Positions 2,909-49,056 of a DNA stretch of 51,218 nucleotides are shown here, piece after piece. This DNA is from a virus (lineage: Duplodnaviria > Caudoviricetes). The stretch lies in the IMG/VR virus record IMGVR_UViG_3300036790_000100, positions 1-51,218 of that record; one strand, given 5' to 3'. Both the position numbers and the translations under genes were made by a program. How positions within the stretch are numbered: the stretch's first letter is position 1; each line of letters opens with the position of its first letter. The notes under the pieces were generated by a model. It was not told the DNA's origin. It saw only the letters and a list, made by a program, of their open reading frames with translations, and searched no databases.

Positions 2909-3562
2909 GTGAGCGCCTACGCGAAGCTGCGCCGCCGGCGGCAGGTCTTTGTCGATGCCTATGTGAAAACAGGCGTCGGCGCCGATGCGATCCGGGCGAT
3001 CAACCCGCTGCTCAAGCGCCCGGATGTGGCGGCATCGAAGATGCTGGCCAACCCGGAGGTGAAGGCGGCGATCGCCGAGAAGCAGGCGCAGGCGATCGCA
3101 CGCGCCGGGGCTCGCGAAGTGCGCGTGATCGAGGAGCTGTGCCACCTGGCATTCTTCGATCCGGGCGAGCTGCAGGATGAGAACGGCCACTATCTGCCGT
3201 TGAATCAACTGCGCCCCGAAGTGCGTCGGGCGCTGCAGTCGATCGACGTCGAGGACAAGTTCGAGGGCACCGGCGACGCACGGCGCGTGGTCAGCCGCCG
3301 GCACCGCTACAAGGGCAGCACCAAGGAAGGCGCGCTCAAGATCCTGCTGCAGTACATGAAGGCGCTGCCCGAACAGGTGCAGGTCTCAGGTCCCGGCGGC
3401 GGTCCGATCGAGACGCGCAGCGAGGTGACCGACCTTGAGAAAGCCCGGCGCATCGCCTTCCTTCTGACCATGGGCCTTAAGGCGAAGCCCACCACCCCAT
3501 TGAGCGACCCGGCCGAGCCGGTCGCACCAGTTTCCGCCGACGGCAACGCCGGCGGAGTTTGA
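2909..3562 (+). CDS. terS: Terminase small subunit
   Basis: RRQVFVDAYV..AIRA..AASKMLANPEVKAAI..VIEEL..LAFFD pattern and VSGPGGGPIET tail, typical of the Terminase_2 family. Confidence 0.85.
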   Translation: MSAYAKLRRRRQVFVDAYVKTGVGADAIRAINPLLKRPDVAASKMLANPEVKAAIAEKQAQAIARAGAREVRVIEELCHLAFFDPGELQDENGHYLPLNQLRPEVRRALQSIDVEDKFEGTGDARRVVSRRHRYKGSTKEGALKILLQYMKALPEQVQVSGPGGGPIETRSEVTDLEKARRIAFLLTMGLKAKPTTPLSDPAEPVAPVSADGNAGGV

Positions 3563-3605: not shown

Positions 3606-4436
3606 GTGAAGCGACCCTTACGATCGATCTATGGCCAGTACGTGGCCACCGTGGATGACTTCCGGCTCATCGCGAGCTTAGGACTCATCACCGGGCAATG
3701 GGGCAACCAGATGCCCTTGGGCGATACGAACAATATCGTCATGTTTGACGACTTCGACGGCGCAGCCTTGCTCGGCACCTGGTCGGTGCTCAAGGGCACG
3801 GACGCGGCGGCCGCCAACTTCGCCACCAACGCCGGCGTGTCGGGCACCATCCTCGGTACCACCGGCGCGACCACCACGACCATGGCCGGCTCCGGTGTGC
3901 AGATCACCGGCGGTCTGAACTTCAAGGCGCAGGGCGCTGCCGGCACCGGCGGCACCAACAACCTGGAGTTCAACTCGCGCGTGAAGGTCGACGTCATCAC
4001 CAACCAGGTGATGTTCGTAGGCTTGACCAACGCGGCAACCTTGCAGATGCCCATTCAGGGCAGCGGCGTGGGCAATGCCTTCACCGGCAACGCCAACGAT
4101 GCGGTGGGCTTCCTGTTCGACACGACCATGACCACGGCGGCCTGGTGGTGTGTCGGTAACAAAGCGGGCGCCGGTCCGCAGGGTTTCCTGGCGACCGCGC
4201 CGGGCGGCTCCAACAATGCGCCAGTGGCGGCGACGTTCGCGCAGTTTGCGATCAGCGTGGATCAGCTGGGCAATGCGAACTTCTTCTACAACGGCGTGCA
4301 GGTCGGCGTGACGATGCTCGGTGCACTCACGCCAACGGTGGCCCTCACCCCGATCGTCGCGGTGTTCAACCGCACGGCCGCGGCCTCGAGGAACCCGCAG
4401 ATCGACTACATCATGACAAGCATGAATCGGATCTAG
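3606..4436 (+). CDS. Beta-sandwich (ConA/LamG-like) putative virion protein
   Basis: FDDF start motif, G/T/A-rich strands, ANFFYNGVQVG and IDYI C-terminal motifs; AGGAGA RBS. Confidence 0.55.
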   Translation: MKRPLRSIYGQYVATVDDFRLIASLGLITGQWGNQMPLGDTNNIVMFDDFDGAALLGTWSVLKGTDAAAANFATNAGVSGTILGTTGATTTTMAGSGVQITGGLNFKAQGAAGTGGTNNLEFNSRVKVDVITNQVMFVGLTNAATLQMPIQGSGVGNAFTGNANDAVGFLFDTTMTTAAWWCVGNKAGAGPQGFLATAPGGSNNAPVAATFAQFAISVDQLGNANFFYNGVQVGVTMLGALTPTVALTPIVAVFNRTAAASRNPQIDYIMTSMNRI

Positions 4437-41652: not shown

Positions 41653-42251
41653 GACTGCAGGCTCCGGCAAACCCACTCTGGCACCTCGATATCCAGGCGC
41701 CGATTCGGCCGGCGCACTTCGCGGTGCAGGACGATATGTCGCAGGAGGGACATTTCCATCCACACATCGTTGAGGCAGTAGTTGATGACGCGGCCGCGCT
41801 GCCCGCGCTGCCACCAGATCGGCGCCATCGCGCCGTCGCCAGTCTTGTTGATGCGCAGCGTCTCTCCGCACACCGCATCAAGTCCCCATCCGCCATGCGT
41901 CGCCGGCTGAAACCGATCCGGGTCCAGGCCCTGCGCCACCCAGATCTGCTCGAGCATGTCGTAATGCAGCTCGTCATTCAGCTGCAGGCCGTGCTCCTCG
42001 AGGAGCGGCTTGTCGAAGCGGCGCGTGTTGAAGCCGGCGGTCGCCCGGTTGGTGAGGTAGCCCTGCAGCTCCTGCAGGTCCTCTTTGAGCCAGGCGCCGG
42101 TGAGGCCGGTCACCAGGTCATAGGTGCACACCACGGTGATGCCCATGCCCTTGAAATCGCGCCAGCCCTCGCAGTACTGGATGTCCGGGTGGCGCACCTG
42201 CCCGCGATAGGGCGGGATTGCTTTCTCGATTTCGACGTCGACCACGATCAT
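41649..42251 (-). CDS. RNase H-like / DEDD 3'-5' exonuclease
   Basis: VVDVE, GFN...FD..LL, L..V...L...KTG.G..A...W, YCLNDV. Confidence 0.8.
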   Translation of the reverse strand: MIVVDVEIEKAIPPYRGQVRHPDIQYCEGWRDFKGMGITVVCTYDLVTGLTGAWLKEDLQELQGYLTNRATAGFNTRRFDKPLLEEHGLQLNDELHYDMLEQIWVAQGLDPDRFQPATHGGWGLDAVCGETLRINKTGDGAMAPIWWQRGQRGRVINYCLNDVWMEMSLLRHIVLHREVRRPNRRLDIEVPEWVCRSLQS

Positions 42252-43708
42252 GTCGTTTCCTCCGCTGTGGTGGTTTCTTCTGCATCGCGCGCGTGGCCGT
42301 CCTCAATGACGAAGCCGATCTTGCCGCTGGCATCGACCCGCTCGATCCACACCTGGAACTTCCGGTCCTTGGCCTTCGCCTCCAGGATCTTCATGCTGTC
42401 CGGATCCAGCAGCGAGCCGTCGCGGATCCGGATCACGCGCAGCTTCGGGCTCATGGCCATGGCGATATCGCACGAGGCGGCGAGCTGCTCGGCATCCGAG
42501 CCCTGGTTGAATGGCACGCCATTGAGCAGCACCTCCTCATCCCCGAAGCCGATGCCGGTGACCGGGATCTGCGCCGCGGCGATCGCGGTGTTCTTCTCCG
42601 CCTCCCGATCGGTGATCTTCTTCGTGAGCGCCTTGGACTCCAGCTCCAGGCGTGCGGCGTTCTGCTCGTGCACGTTGCGCTGGCGCAGCCGCTCGGCCTG
42701 CGCGTTGGCGGCGGTGGCAGCATCGATGCGCTTGGCCAAGGCCTCCGTGTCGATCGGCGCCGGGAGCACCTCGGCCTCATCCAGCTGCTTTTGCGCCTCG
42801 GCCGCCGCAGTTTCAAACTCCTGCGCATTGCGCTCGACCTGCGCCTGGTGCTGCTCCAGCTCGTGTTTCTCGCCGGCGTCCAGGCTATCGAGCTTCAGCC
42901 GCTCGTTCGCAATCTCCGCCTCGAGCTCCTGGATCCTGGCGCGCAGCTCAGCGGCGTGCGAGGCGTAGCGCTTGGCGATCTGATCAATTCCGACGGCGCT
43001 GCTCTCCCGGATCTGCGCGGCGCGGTTGCGCGATGCCACGACACCTTCCGCGATCGCCTGGCGCCGGACCTTCCGGGTCTCGATCGAGGTGTTGAAGCCG
43101 CCGGCCTCGCCGAGCTGCTCGACCAGGGCCTTCACGTCCACCAGGTCGGTGGTGGTGCCTTCGGGCACGACGATCACGGCCGCGGCGCCGCGTTGCTCCT
43201 CGGCCGCCCGGTTGATGTCCTGGCGGCGCGTGTAGTCGCCACGGTTGGCGTCGGCGATCGCCTTGAAGTCAACGCCCGGCACAAAGCGCTTCAGCTGGTC
43301 GTACTGCTCGCGCGGCTTCATGCGGGCGAACTCGAGCGGATCGAAGGTCAGCGCGCCGAAGAATGCATCGAGCATCTTCTGCGGGGACTTGTACATCGCC
43401 CCGTCCGGGCTCTCCACGGTGATCGAGGTGGTGAGCTCCCCGCCGGCCCTGATCTTGAAGGTACGAGTAACGATGAGCTCAGGCTGTCCATCGCCGAGCA
43501 CCAGGATGATGCTGCCTTCTTGGTTCCCCTTTCTGATCGGTGTGGACTGGATCGCATCCTTGCCGTCGAGCGCCCACCAGATGCTGTCGAGTACCGAGGT
43601 TTTCCCGTTGCCGTTTTTGCCCGTGATCTGGACCAGGTTGCCACGCGGCTTTATCTGGACAGCGACGATCCGCTTGATGTTCTCAGCCTGAAAATTAATT
43701 ATTTGCAC
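42248..43708 (-). CDS. SMC/Rad50-like (AAA_23) coiled-coil ATPase
   Basis: Walker A GKNGNGKTS, long coiled coil, signature-like QGSDAEQ, Walker B/D-loop IRIRDGSLLD. Confidence 0.9.
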   Translation of the reverse strand: MQIINFQAENIKRIVAVQIKPRGNLVQITGKNGNGKTSVLDSIWWALDGKDAIQSTPIRKGNQEGSIILVLGDGQPELIVTRTFKIRAGGELTTSITVESPDGAMYKSPQKMLDAFFGALTFDPLEFARMKPREQYDQLKRFVPGVDFKAIADANRGDYTRRQDINRAAEEQRGAAAVIVVPEGTTTDLVDVKALVEQLGEAGGFNTSIETRKVRRQAIAEGVVASRNRAAQIRESSAVGIDQIAKRYASHAAELRARIQELEAEIANERLKLDSLDAGEKHELEQHQAQVERNAQEFETAAAEAQKQLDEAEVLPAPIDTEALAKRIDAATAANAQAERLRQRNVHEQNAARLELESKALTKKITDREAEKNTAIAAAQIPVTGIGFGDEEVLLNGVPFNQGSDAEQLAASCDIAMAMSPKLRVIRIRDGSLLDPDSMKILEAKAKDRKFQVWIERVDASGKIGFVIEDGHARDAEETTTAEETT

Positions 43709-43712
43709 AAAA

Positions 43713-43777
43713 TCACCCTACCGTGCCTTAGCCCACCTGGCCCCGCCTTGCGCGGCCCCGGTCTGCCATGCCACGCC
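43713..43777 (-). ncRNA. GGY-NN pentamer array downstream of the RAMP-like gene (putative guide RNA, 13 units)
   Basis: + strand reads tcacc ctacc gtgcc ttagc ccacc tggcc ccgcc ttgcg cggcc ccggt ctgcc atgcc acgcc. 10 of 13 units are exact NNRCC, and the array fills the intergenic gap. Confidence 0.8.
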
Positions 43778-43781
43778 GAAA

Positions 43782-44402
43782 TTATTTGAGACGCTCGAAA
43801 CGCGTGAGGTCGAACCTGCCATAGGTCGGACGGAAGTCACCCACCCCGATGAGCCGGCCGGCGATGCCGAGCAGCTCGCGCAGGAAGATCTCGTCCACAT
43901 ACTCAGGTAAGTTCACCATCAGATCGAACTGAGCCTTCCAGCCGGCACGCATTGCAGGCCGAACGCGCGTGATCGCACTGCGCTGGATCACGACACGGCG
44001 AGCATCCTCATAGTCCCAATCCTTCACGCCCAGCGGTGCAAGTGGCGTAAGGGAAATCACACCAGCCTTCACCAGGTCCATGGCGCTCTTGCGCGGGCTG
44101 CGCGGATCCTGGCGGAACTTGGCCGCATTGACGACAGCGCCGCGTAGATACTCTCCGGGGAGGCACAGGCCACCCTTGGCATCGCGGTACACATAGCTCT
44201 CAACGTTGTCCGTCTTTTTGCTCGCAGAACCTTTGCGTGCTGCGGCCTTCTCGGCGACAGCTTCGTTATTCCAGCGATGAAACAGAAGGTCCGCGCTGCC
44301 GGTGATCTGCACCCTGGCAGTCCACGGCTCGCTCAGCTCGATCTGTTCCTTCGCACCATTGGTCGCGTCAGCAATGCTGACGACTTTCGCAGCCTCTTTC
44401 AT
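43782..44402 (-). CDS. Stand-alone RAMP/Cas7-like RNA-binding protein (Vipr-like)
   Basis: N-terminal strand V.ITG..DLLFH, LPGEYLRGAV (RAMP IPG.S.KG equivalent), RVRP thumb, C-terminal Gly-rich loop AG.LIGVGDFRP.YGRF; AAGGAAGG RBS; no other cas genes. Confidence 0.75.
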   Translation of the reverse strand: MKEAAKVVSIADATNGAKEQIELSEPWTARVQITGSADLLFHRWNNEAVAEKAAARKGSASKKTDNVESYVYRDAKGGLCLPGEYLRGAVVNAAKFRQDPRSPRKSAMDLVKAGVISLTPLAPLGVKDWDYEDARRVVIQRSAITRVRPAMRAGWKAQFDLMVNLPEYVDEIFLRELLGIAGRLIGVGDFRPTYGRFDLTRFERLK

Positions 44403-44425
44403 TGAACACCTTCCTTATAAAAACG

Positions 44426-44630
44426 GAACCTTACCCAACCCAACCCAGCACCGGCTCGCTAGGCCCGATCCGATCACACCTCACCGCACCGCGGATTGCC
44501 CCGCATGGCCATGCCACACCAAAACTTGCCCCACTCCGCCCGGCCGTAGCTCGCCTAACCATGGCGCGTCAAGCGGTGCCATACCATGCTCGACCTAACC
44601 GGACCTTTCCCCGTCCAGGCTTGACTCGCC
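44426..44630 (-). ncRNA. GGY-NN pentamer array upstream of the RAMP-like gene (41 in-phase units)
   Basis: Strict 5-nt period over 205 bp: 23 of 41 units exact NNRCC on the + strand, 17 more with one mismatch. Confidence 0.8.
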
Positions 44631-44638
44631 TAATTCAA

Positions 44639-44698
44639 GAGGCATGCAGTGCCAGGCCACACCGAACCACAGCATTGCTAGCCCGACACTGCCGTACC
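44639..44698 (-). ncRNA. Third GGY-NN pentamer block (12 units, shifted phase)
   Basis: gaggc atgca gtgcc aggcc acacc gaacc acagc attgc tagcc cgaca ctgcc gtacc; 7 exact units; separated from the long block by the AT-rich linker TAATTCAA. Confidence 0.7.
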
Positions 44699-44702
44699 AG
44701 AT

Positions 44703-45809
44703 TCATAATTTACCGCCCTCGGCCAGCGCTTCCTTCTTCTCGACGTAGGCGGCATGCACGGCGTTCGGGATCTCCCGGGTGCTCGCGGCGTAGTCGGTCC
44801 ACACCTTCGTCTTGATCAGCTCCAGTTGCTTGAGCGTGGTGCTGGCGCGCAGCTCGAAGGCAGCCGTGTCATCCGAGTAGTACGGCACGTAGTTGCTGGA
44901 CGGCTTCTTGTCTGGCTCCTTGGCCGCCGCCGGCGTCACTTCCTGTTTTGCTTCCGGTTTTGAGGCCGCGGCCGCGGGCTGCTCGGCCGCCTTGCGCAGT
45001 GCCTCCTTGGCGGCATCCGCGCGGCTCGCCGGGGTCGCGCCCTCCAGCTGCGGGAAGGACTCATCCACCGTCGCATCGCCCTCCTTGATCGCAGTCTTGA
45101 TGCCAGTGAGCAAGGTGAGCTGATCGATGCCGATGTCAGCTTCTCCGGTCACCTCGAGCACCGCGAACACGCGCGCCTGGTCGATGCCCAGCTTGCGGAT
45201 CCAGTCCATGACCTGGCCGCGGCGCTTGGCCAGCGTCGTCGCATCCCCGATCGCCACGCGCCGCGCCTCGGTCTCGAGTTTGCGGCACAGCGCCTTCGGC
45301 ACCACCGTGAAGGTCGCATCGCGGCGGGCCTTCGCCAGGCACGCCTTCGCCACCACCACGCGCATGCGCTCGCTGTAGGGCTTGTTGTACTTGTCCACCG
45401 TGGACTCGATGACCTCCGATTCGCTGGCGAAGTTGGTCTCCAGGTCGTGCGCGTAGCCCTTGGCCTTCACGTAGCGCGGCGTCATTTCCACGATCATCGC
45501 GCCCACGCGCAGGTTGCCGTAGCAGCCGCCGACGATCTCGGCCATGCGGATCGACATGCCTTCGGCGAACTTGCCGCCGCCGACGGGCCGGCTGTACAGG
45601 CACGACTCGGCCGTCTCCTCATCGAGCGTCACCATTTCGAGCGCGCGCTTCTGGAACTTGGCGATCGATCGCGGGTAGGCATGGGCGGTGGCGATCTGCC
45701 GATCGATCTGCGCATCGGTGATCGACTTCAGCGCCTGGTTCACGCTGTCCTGGACGGAGACGATCTCCCCGGTGTCGCCGTCGATGACCTGGCTGCCTTC
45801 GGTGCTCAT
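44703..45809 (-). CDS. Putative single-strand annealing/recombination protein (partner of YqaJ)
   Basis: IDRQIATA..YPRS..EG.SIR.AE...GNL core with flexible C-terminal tail; coupled to the YqaJ gene. Function inferred from position only. Confidence 0.55.
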   Translation of the reverse strand: MSTEGSQVIDGDTGEIVSVQDSVNQALKSITDAQIDRQIATAHAYPRSIAKFQKRALEMVTLDEETAESCLYSRPVGGGKFAEGMSIRMAEIVGGCYGNLRVGAMIVEMTPRYVKAKGYAHDLETNFASESEVIESTVDKYNKPYSERMRVVVAKACLAKARRDATFTVVPKALCRKLETEARRVAIGDATTLAKRRGQVMDWIRKLGIDQARVFAVLEVTGEADIGIDQLTLLTGIKTAIKEGDATVDESFPQLEGATPASRADAAKEALRKAAEQPAAAASKPEAKQEVTPAAAKEPDKKPSSNYVPYYSDDTAAFELRASTTLKQLELIKTKVWTDYAASTREIPNAVHAAYVEKKEALAEGGKL

Positions 45810-47113: not shown

Positions 47114-47368
47114 CTACAGCGCTTGCGGGCGCAGGCCGGGCGGGAACGGGCCGGGCAGGTTCAGGCGCTGCTTGCGCTCAGCCCGCACCCCGCGCACGAA
47201 CCCGACGCGCTCGGCGCGCACCAGGGCCAGGGCGACCTGCGCGGTGGTCAGCACCGGCTCCTCGCCGAGCGCCAGGATCACATCGCGCAGGTTTCGGATC
47301 GGCTGCACGTCCTGCGATACCGCGGGTACAGCCTTCGCTGAGCCGCTCACCGGATCACCAGCCAGCAC
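47114..47368 (-). CDS. Hypothetical protein (start uncertain)
   Basis: Fits the early operon. Confidence 0.45.
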   Translation of the reverse strand: MLAGDPVSGSAKAVPAVSQDVQPIRNLRDVILALGEEPVLTTAQVALALVRAERVGFVRGVRAERKQRLNLPGPFPPGLRPQAL

Positions 47369-48148: not shown

Positions 48149-48168
48149 ACGTGTGGGACCCGGCTCTG

Positions 48169-49056
48169 ATGGTCGATCTGCCGAGGCCACCGATCGATCC
48201 GGACGTGGACCTCCGGAACTTCCCCTACCTTCCGCTCGATGTGGTAAGGCTCCGCGACAGCGACCTGGCGGCCTCGCCGCACCCCGAAGTTTTCCGCTGC
48301 GCGGTGCTCAGCTGGTGTGTCGCCTGGCACCAGACGCCAGCCGGCAGCCTGCCAGACGATGACGTGATTCTCGCCAGGCTGCTTGGCTATGGTAGAGACA
48401 TCAGAGGGTGGCAACGCATCCGCAAGAAGGGTGGTTTGCGTGGCTGGGCGCTTCATTCTGATGGTCGGTTGTACCATCCCGTTGTGGTGGAAAAGGCTAT
48501 AGAATCATGGCTTAAGAACAAGTCCAACCGGGCTAAAACGGAGGCGGCACGGCTGGCTAAACTCAAGCTGTCACAAGGTCAGTCACAACCTCTGTCACAG
48601 AGCCTGTCACTACCACTGTCACAGACGGAATCTTCCACTGTCACTGGATCCAAGGGAAGGGAAGGGATAGGAAGGGAAGAGAAGGGAAGGGACGTCGGAC
48701 CCTCCGTAGGTGCCCGTGACGCTCCTCCGGAGCCACCCACGCCGGATGAGAACCGGCGCGTGTTCCTGGCCTGCAAGTCCAAGTACCCCGGAGGGCTGCA
48801 CCGTGGCGATCACTGGCTGCTCGCCGAGCGCGAGATTGGGCTGAGGCTCGATGAGGGCACGCCAGGTGACGCGCTGATCGGGAACACTGAGGCCTATTGC
48901 GCTCAGCAGGAAGCCTTGGGCACGATCGGGACCGAGCGGGTGATGCGGCCGAATAATTTTTACAACGGCTCCGGCGCCTGGCGCGGTCCGTTCCCGCTGC
49001 CGGTCGCGAAGTCCAATCGAGCATCTGACCGAATCACTTACGTGCCGGAGGAGTGA
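48169..49056 (+). CDS. DUF1376 (YdaU-like) replication initiator
   Basis: DLRNFPYLPLDVVRLRDS..WHQ.PAGSLPDDD..LA.L..GW....DGRLYHPVV.EKA; internal iterons; C-terminal YP/FYN domain. Confidence 0.85.
   Translation: MVDLPRPPIDPDVDLRNFPYLPLDVVRLRDSDLAASPHPEVFRCAVLSWCVAWHQTPAGSLPDDDVILARLLGYGRDIRGWQRIRKKGGLRGWALHSDGRLYHPVVVEKAIESWLKNKSNRAKTEAARLAKLKLSQGQSQPLSQSLSLPLSQTESSTVTGSKGREGIGREEKGRDVGPSVGARDAPPEPPTPDENRRVFLACKSKYPGGLHRGDHWLLAEREIGLRLDEGTPGDALIGNTEAYCAQQEALGTIGTERVMRPNNFYNGSGAWRGPFPLPVAKSNRASDRITYVPEE
48568..48685 (+). repeat. Putative replication origin: C(T/A)GTCAC iterons plus purine tract
   Basis: Copies at 48568, 48580, 48592, 48604, 48616 (12-bp period) and 48638, followed by GGGAA repeats. 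Confidence 0.7.

Follow-up and report, generated by a model that had tools for sequence, protein, structure and literature searches.

The stretch of DNA analysed here, hereafter the window, is a phage contig of 51,218 nucleotides (nt) (IMG/VR record IMGVR_UViG_3300036790_000100, taken over its full length), and the locus of interest lies at positions 43709-44702, where a gene for a 206-amino-acid (aa) minimal RAMP (Cas7-like) protein is accompanied on both sides by arrays of five-nucleotide GGY-NN units. There is a high probability that this locus is a Viral Interference Programmable Repeat (VIPR) cassette residing in a phage genome, and that its downstream array, termed guide C below, most likely silences the early recombination operon of competing phages. 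The cassette is minimal, with a size of about 1 kb.

All features of the locus lie on the minus strand. The stop codon of an upstream gene for a 368-aa protein (44703-44705) is located 4 nt before array A (44639..44698), which comprises 12 units, 7 of them with an exact GGY. An AT-rich gap of 8 nt, TTGAATTA (44631..44638), shifts the pentamer register between array A and array B (44426..44630), in which 41 units (23 exact) follow each other in one register and with no separator. Between array B and the start codon of the vipr gene (43782..44402) there is a 23-nt stretch formed by a T-run and a ribosome-binding site, CGTTTTTATAAGGAAGGTGTTCA (44403..44425), and array C (43713..43777; 13 units, 10 exact) begins 4 nt after the vipr stop codon. 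The four nucleotides TTTT separate the end of array C from the GTG start codon (43708) of a 486-aa Rad50/SbcC-like ATPase gene (phrog_1499; 42248..43708). This gene belongs to the family in which array C finds its matches in other phages, and the copy of the window phage has the Walker-A site Q-I-T-G-K-N-G-N-G-K-T-S-V at 43593..43630. The initial annotation, made from the letters alone, had described both the 206-aa open reading frame (ORF) and the period-5 arrays with 13, 41 and 12 units; the ORF list and an independent count returned the same coordinates and numbers, including the total of 40 exact units out of 66.

The periodicity of the arrays is far stronger than the base composition of the tracts would give. 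Over the three arrays, 63 of the 66 units differ from GGY by at most one mismatch and 64 carry a pyrimidine at position 3 (40 of 41 on both counts for array B alone), and the information content of the five unit positions is 1.10, 0.89, 0.85, 0.07 and 0.03 bits, with all 16 NN dinucleotides represented. In comparison with 2000 dinucleotide-preserving shuffles, the upstream tract contains 24 in-phase GGY units (shuffled 7.5 +/- 1.4, maximum 13), array B 23 (5.8 +/- 1.2, maximum 11) and the downstream tract 10 (2.9 +/- 0.8, maximum 7). When the minus-strand period-5 power of G was computed in ~5100 sliding segments of 100 nt over the whole 51 kb, the 25 top segments were all within the two tracts. 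Similarly, the 39 minus-strand segments of 205 nt with at least 13 in-phase units are all found at 44319-44713, the plus strand has at most 9 such units in any 205-nt segment, and outside the tracts the window shows a single run, a marginal one of 5/7 units at 47134-47168 (+). The arrays were not called by Tandem Repeats Finder because their NN positions vary.

VIPR systems have been described in three preprints (10.64898/2026.04.26.720920, 10.64898/2026.04.26.720927 and 10.64898/2026.10.15.759431). According to the first, Vipr is a minimal RAMP protein, and its guide RNAs (vrRNAs) each have 9-16 YNNGG repeats and, after these, a tail; 664 loci were reported, most of them viral and 'typically' with a vap gene, and they are divided into seven types, with six vap genes named. 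The same text gives double-stranded DNA as the target, the NN pairs being read with one skipped base that usually coincides with the codon wobble position, and it also mentions staggered arrays (10.64898/2026.04.26.720920). The second preprint assigns one Vipr protomer to each repeat and names H17, R138, D177, W178, R179 and E71 as GGY-binding residues (10.64898/2026.04.26.720927), and the third deals with the competition of a phage against its satellite (10.64898/2026.10.15.759431). The suggestion in the initial annotation that one protomer binds each GGY and displays NN as a non-contiguous guide thus agrees with the mechanism given in these texts, and its suggestion of a VIPR system proved right; the novelty that it implied does not hold, since systems of this kind were already published in 2026, as it had itself cautioned. 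With 13 and 12 units, respectively, arrays C and A fit the published number of repeats per vrRNA, and array C is the best-supported candidate for a single vrRNA. The 41 units of array B exceed that number, and array B therefore probably comprises several guides.

For the protein, a phmmer search against PDB sequences matched SUSP1 Vipr (36pp_D) at E 9.6e-9, with residues 69-199 of the query aligned to residues 56-187. The Gly-rich loop GVGDFRPTYGRF and the LPG..LRG motif, which had been read as RAMP motifs, both have counterparts in the solved protein: the loop aligns with SUSP1 GVGDWRPRFGRF and lines up with the G-loop residues D177/W178/R179, and LPGEYLRG aligns with the helix-1 residues E71/M72. 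When the 206-aa protein was aligned with 72 members of the family and with the Vipr sequence given in the SUSP1 phage record, the GGY-contact residues of SUSP1 are kept as identical residues (H17=H42, E71=E84, R138=R148, D177=D189 and R179=R191), and W178 aligns with F190, where the aromatic character is kept but not the identity. Four of these positions are strongly conserved, as H17, R138, D177 and R179 prevail in their columns with 59, 72, 67 and 71 of the 73 family members, respectively, whereas E71 is merely the commonest residue in its column (29/73). No match to the protein was found in Pfam; in PHROGs it belongs to phrog_4652 (E 2.8e-18), for which no function is annotated.

An AlphaFold2 model computed from 73 sequences (pLDDT 94.7, pTM 0.86) was used for structure comparison with Foldseek. 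The best structures were Csm3 of type III-A, the Cas7 of type VII and Cas7-11, with E values from 1.4e-7 to 1e-5 and template modelling (TM) scores of 0.5-0.57 over ~205 columns; the top match has E 1.4e-7 and TM 0.55, and 156 matches were obtained at E <= 0.001 from a library that ends on 8 April 2026 and has no VIPR entry. A beta-hairpin at residues 131-151 carries R148, the residue aligned with R138 of the SUSP1 thumb. The model allows a Cas7/Csm3-like minimal RAMP fold, with one RRM core, a glycine-rich loop and a putative thumb, to be predicted with confidence, in line with the fold expected in the initial annotation.

The protein belongs to a large family that has no name, with 7079 of 7398 candidates retained at E <= 1e-3 and 1435 cluster representatives, and a tblastn search with the protein matched phiSUSP1 and 121 other phage records. 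Related loci were collected from IMG/VR (80 loci; 102 of 108 candidate stretches were confirmed) and from GTDB genomes (18 loci, one of which is the window's own contig). With the own contig left out and a run defined as at least five exact GGY-NN units within 1 kb of the gene, gene-strand runs are present near vipr in 94 of 97 related loci (50 have upstream runs, 77 downstream runs and 33 both), so that the flanking arrays anticipated for homologues were indeed found; the three loci without a run are a contig ending at the gene end, one partial match and L021. The runs near the gene contain 4892 units on its own strand and 271 on the other, and those further away 275 and 0, respectively. As in the window, the NN positions are essentially free, with 0.04 and 0.01 bits of information. 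Ends of the 'GGY + T-run + RBS (ribosome-binding site)' form, like that of array B, are also seen in relatives L001 and L003-L005. No guides common to the window and its relatives were found above the shuffled background.

These distributions bear on the proposal that there is no guide system at the locus, and that the tracts are translated low-complexity peptides, satellite DNA or protein-binding sites beside an orphan Cas7 left by a lost CRISPR-Cas system. Spurious ORFs do cross the arrays on both strands, and across loci they cluster as artefacts. A period of five is, however, incompatible with a reading frame, and NN is free while GGY is fixed, on which grounds translated peptides were rejected as an account of the tracts. 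Moreover, the arrays accompany vipr in unrelated neighbourhoods, the protein matches a solved Vipr, and applying the published rule to array C yields a target, as described below. PADLOC returned no match to Cas families among the six module proteins scanned, with only generic ATPase matches for the neighbouring ATPase, and Tandem Repeats Finder showed nothing array-like that would correspond to a CRISPR repeat-spacer array, although no dedicated CRISPR-array finder was run; within that scope, the Cas7-like gene stands alone, as had been noted at the outset. The absence of any guide system is therefore extremely improbable.

Several related loci contain additional RNA elements or genes. In one VIPR subclade, arrays are split by conserved elements (L037:2920-3999, L044:1036-1603, L047:2481-2819, L045:3666-3937 and L050:3831-3914) that are 62-104 nt long, mostly 82-104 nt, form two hairpins with covarying stems and end in ...GATACACGAGAGACAAGCGA just before the next array; they match no Rfam family, even weakly, and could be processing elements or tails. 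A locus from a Raineya metagenome-assembled genome (MAG), in which all arrays are upstream, has two tRNA genes directly 3' of vipr (L096:3617-3676 and 3783-3853; 49 and 72 bits in Rfam). A match to the type-P5 twister ribozyme (L050:392-468, minus strand; 40 bits against a gathering threshold of 37.6) is situated ~2.5 kb upstream of vipr and outside the arrays, and no ribozyme, hammerhead or other, was found inside the arrays of 20 related loci. Finally, reading by eye revealed a small XRE-like helix-turn-helix ORF after the first downstream array in two loci (L002:~3690-3865 and L004:~3150-3320), of which no counterpart was seen in the window.

By homology with published VIPR, the mechanism of the cassette may be pictured as follows. 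It would comprise one vipr gene with the predicted vrRNA arrays A and B upstream and C downstream, all on the minus strand, and on the array transcripts, possibly after processing, Vipr protomers would polymerise with one protomer per pentamer. Each protomer would sequester GGY and present its NN pair, and the NN pairs would bind double-stranded DNA with every third target base skipped, thereby blocking transcription. In guide C, the NN pairs correspond to the first two positions of the codons for the Walker-A box V-I-S-G-R-N-G-Q-G-K-T-S, which occurs in a phage Rad50/SbcC-like ATPase subfamily different from that of the neighbouring gene and also in some bacterial recF genes. Most likely, the cassette would serve to shut down the early recombination operon of competing phages that share its host.

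Guide C was converted by the published one-base-skip (xNN) rule, and its first ten units, that is 20 specified bases, were used to scan IMG/VR, which gave 3 matches; an 11-unit seed gave 11 matches in metagenome contigs. Read as codon positions 1 and 2, the array corresponds to V-I/M-S/R-G-R-K/N-G-H/Q-G-K/N-T-S/R-D/E, and all 14 matches lie in frame on Walker-A codons for V-I-S-G-R-N-G-Q/H-G-K-T-S, the base that is passed over being the wobble base in each. Agreement is found at 23-25 of the 26 NN bases (88-96%, the criterion for natural targets being >= 80%). The wobble bases vary between matches, and shuffled guides gave 0-1 matches on the rival contigs as against 13 observed. Eleven of the 14 matches are in phage Rad50/SbcC-like ATPase genes that are 31-44% identical to the window's neighbouring ATPase, and two of these are on viral contigs rated complete and devoid of vipr. 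In one of these two, the 39-kb contig G003, the genes follow the same order as in the window: first that of a RecE-like exonuclease, next an unassigned ORF in the place taken here by the phrog_3657 gene, and then that of a phrog_1499 ATPase. The remaining three matches (L119, L124 and L125) are in bacterial recF, as judged from TIGR00611 RecF matches at E 3e-33 to 5e-38 on partial ORFs.

The recF matches leave room for a VIPR system whose guide C is aimed at host recF, for host takeover or for control of recombination, rather than at rival phages, and vrRNAs that send VIPR to host-genome sites are indeed reported in one preprint (10.64898/2026.10.15.759431). The phage-type ATPase genes nevertheless account for most of the matches, including those on complete viral contigs, and neither the 2.8-Mb MAG to which the contig belongs nor any of 201 genomes from the same order contained a match to the full guide C pattern at up to 3 mismatches. 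In addition, natural VIPR targets are described as mostly mobile elements in the first preprint (10.64898/2026.04.26.720920). A host recF target is thus considered unlikely, and guide C appears to be aimed at the ATPase genes of competing phages.

The phage's own ATPase appears to be spared by this guide. Its Walker-A site agrees with guide C at 17/26 NN bases, a level exceeded by the background in the window, which reaches 18/26, and it differs from the guide C motif by four amino acids. Among the 120 closest homologues of the ATPase, a Walker-A peptide could be parsed in 100, the pattern being unmatched in the other 20; all 100 carry boxes of the E/Q-I-T-G-K/R type, and none fits guide C at more than 10 of 13 residues. 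The own allele and its 100 closest parsed relatives would therefore escape guide C. A more elaborate interpretation, put forward tentatively and with more doubt than conviction, is that the locus represents a stripped-down VIPR with no vap gene, no tail and guides placed in the spacers between ORFs, which was inserted into a recombination module, and that a guide directed at a protein motif covers a rival ATPase subfamily and some recF genes despite synonymous variation. The cassette and the resistant ATPase allele beside it would then act in competition between phages as two linked elements, 'poison and immune allele'.

For arrays A and B, exact-seed scans of IMG/VR gave no matches with units 1-9 and 4-12 of array A or with units 1-9, 10-18 and 16-25 of array B; these scans tolerated no mismatch and did not sample the whole of array B, so that they would overlook genuine but imperfectly matching targets. 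A seed from units 29-37 of array B gave 4 IMG/VR matches, three of which do not extend past the seed and are in unrelated places. The fourth extends to 22/22 NN bases over units 27-37 and falls within a gene for an SbcC-like ATPase on the complete phage contig G007 (L117:2818-2850). The gene encodes 663 aa (phrog_77 at 2e-32 and phrog_1499 at 6.6e-14), and the match adjoins its CPCC zinc-hook motif. The gene class is that matched by guide C, and the match is regarded as suggestive only. Apart from this single match of array B, arrays A and B gave none in G007 and none in the three other rival contigs. An xNN scan of arrays A, B and C against the window and 99 loci yielded nothing above the unit-shuffled background, and arrays A and B decoded to protein matched the six frames of the window at background level only.

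The folding of the arrays was also compared with shuffled sequences. Array A folds better than its shuffles (z = -2.70; an equally good fold came up once in 200 shuffles) into a hairpin of ~13 bp plus an inner stem, formed by its degenerate units. Instead of being a guide, or in addition to it, array A may thus act as a structured cap or in the manner of a terminator. Array C also folds better than shuffles (z -2.9), and the halves of array B fold no better (z -0.1 and -0.6; z -0.09 for the 3' part with its flank). The three arrays are followed by differing short AT-rich stretches, and Rfam gave no match over 43400-45000.

The lack of detectable targets for array A and most of array B in the exact-seed scans, together with the self-folding of array A and a proportion of exact GGY units (56-77% per array) that is the lowest among the close relatives listed, would be expected if the cassette were a decaying VIPR remnant, in which the protein gene is intact and the eroded arrays no longer serve as guides. 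Against such erosion, the NN pairs of the degenerate units 4, 6 and 10 of array C match their targets perfectly in all 14 cases, the pyrimidine at position 3 is retained almost throughout (64/66) and 63/66 units stay within one mismatch of GGY. Degeneracy of the same type occurs in validated SUSP1 vrRNAs, internal degeneracy of repeats being frequent according to the first preprint (10.64898/2026.04.26.720920), and the contact residues of Vipr are intact in the alignment. A non-functional remnant is hence judged quite improbable.

A number of observations nonetheless weigh against this interpretation, or against parts of it. At the level of the arrays, most relatives have a larger share of exact GGY units than the 40/66 counted here, and arrays A and B may have decayed in part. 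Convincing targets were found neither for array A nor for the greater part of array B, and array B is longer than the 9-16 units published per vrRNA. The array B match in G007 has the skipped base on codon position 2 and is thus outside the wobble register. In the protein, SUSP1 K33, which contacts the target backbone, aligns with A55, in a region where the alignment is uncertain. Homologues of SUSP1 vap1 and of the 147-aa ORF of phage DSL-LC04 (see below) were not found in the window, nor was the tail pseudoknot of the SUSP1 clade. A consensus scan detected no sigma-70 promoter or intrinsic terminator in the tracts, and sequencing runs containing the stretch amounted to one DNA run, which may be its source, and zero RNA runs. 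As for the proposed target, three of the 14 guide C matches are in bacterial recF, so that the natural targets may be of either class; the rival contigs G001-G003 and G007 have just one or two genes in common with the window phage, and their co-infection with it is an assumption.

With respect to genomic context, the 51-kb contig carries genes for a terminase large subunit, a portal-like protein, a major head protein and tail proteins, and is thus a phage. The order of the recombination module is RecE/YqaJ-like exonuclease, phrog_3657 protein, VIPR cassette, phrog_1499 ATPase, a 200-aa ORF and a ParB-like protein. These neighbours recur beside vipr in only 0-1 of 99 other loci, and the Rad50/SbcC-like ATPase is not a conserved partner of vipr; the largest genuine neighbour family is present in 17 of 100 loci, and the window locus is outside it. 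The only named records among the 120 closest ATPase homologues are from Steroidobacter and Steroidobacteraceae (P0366 and P0368), one of them on a 901-kb contig, which hints at the host lineage. Elsewhere in the window, a replication-protein gene (48151-49056; phrog_22470) contains at 48568-48692 (+) the heptamer CTGTCAC six or seven times at intervals of ~12 nt and, directly after it, (AAGGG) x 8, an arrangement that looks like an iteron-type origin; the AAGGG tract is a period-5 purine tract and not a GGY-NN array, because its NN positions are constant.

As the VIPR kind is already known, the locus opens no new field, and what is new here is the set of guide C targets in Walker-A codons. It adds a clean and testable natural example, from a soil phage, outside the studied Escherichia and Pseudomonas clades. 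Guide C has a computable target set in a conserved motif of a recombination ATPase, and the adjoining own allele provides a natural negative control. If confirmed, the wobble-skipping code would let one guide cover a diverse gene family, and vap genes and structured tails would be dispensable in at least one clade, which matters where VIPR is to be employed as a programmable DNA-binding tool of small size.

The closest characterized counterpart is the type II VIPR of Escherichia phage SUSP1, which shares with the window locus a small RAMP protein with sequence homology and conserved GGY-contact residues, gene-strand GGY-NN arrays up- and downstream of the gene, and a phage context. Internal degenerate xGY units are likewise common to both, and in both a guide matches a coding sequence through its NN pairs, leaves out the wobble base and has no self-target. 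However, the protein has only ~30% identity to SUSP1 Vipr over 63% of the query, and the organisation of the arrays differs. Whereas each SUSP1 vrRNA has a repeated leader and a conserved tail, the window arrays have neither; unlike those of SUSP1, they occupy the whole space between ORFs, from 4 nt behind a stop codon to a T-run at the next ribosome-binding site, and include an array of 41 units with no separator. The structured tail is described for type II and may be type-specific rather than family-wide. A form with no vap gene and no tail but with a 41-unit array may also fall within the types already published, and the published supplements may already list the window locus or its clade.

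Among cultured phages, the closest homologue is found in phage DSL-LC04 (OR003939.1), with 56.9% identity over 99% of the protein, and its gene, annotated as a 'helix-turn-helix transcriptional regulator' (L099 3995-4612), is also preceded by upstream GGY-NN arrays. An inverted repeat (CTTAGTGGGGC ... GCCCCACTAAG) encloses one of these arrays; at the end of the last one there is a hairpin followed by a T-run. The 147-aa ORF mentioned above directly follows the vipr homologue in this phage and has homologues in 6 other loci.

Finally, the Cas7 proteins of class 1 CRISPR-Cas systems (Csm3, type VII Cas7 and Cas7-11) have in common with the window protein the fold, the G-loop, the beta-hairpin thumb and the principle of one protomer per fixed step along the guide. 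They differ from it in sequence, with 10-16% identity, and in the length of the step, which is 5 nt here rather than 6; in contrast to class 1 CRISPR-Cas, the guide would be read non-contiguously, and the published target of VIPR is double-stranded DNA.

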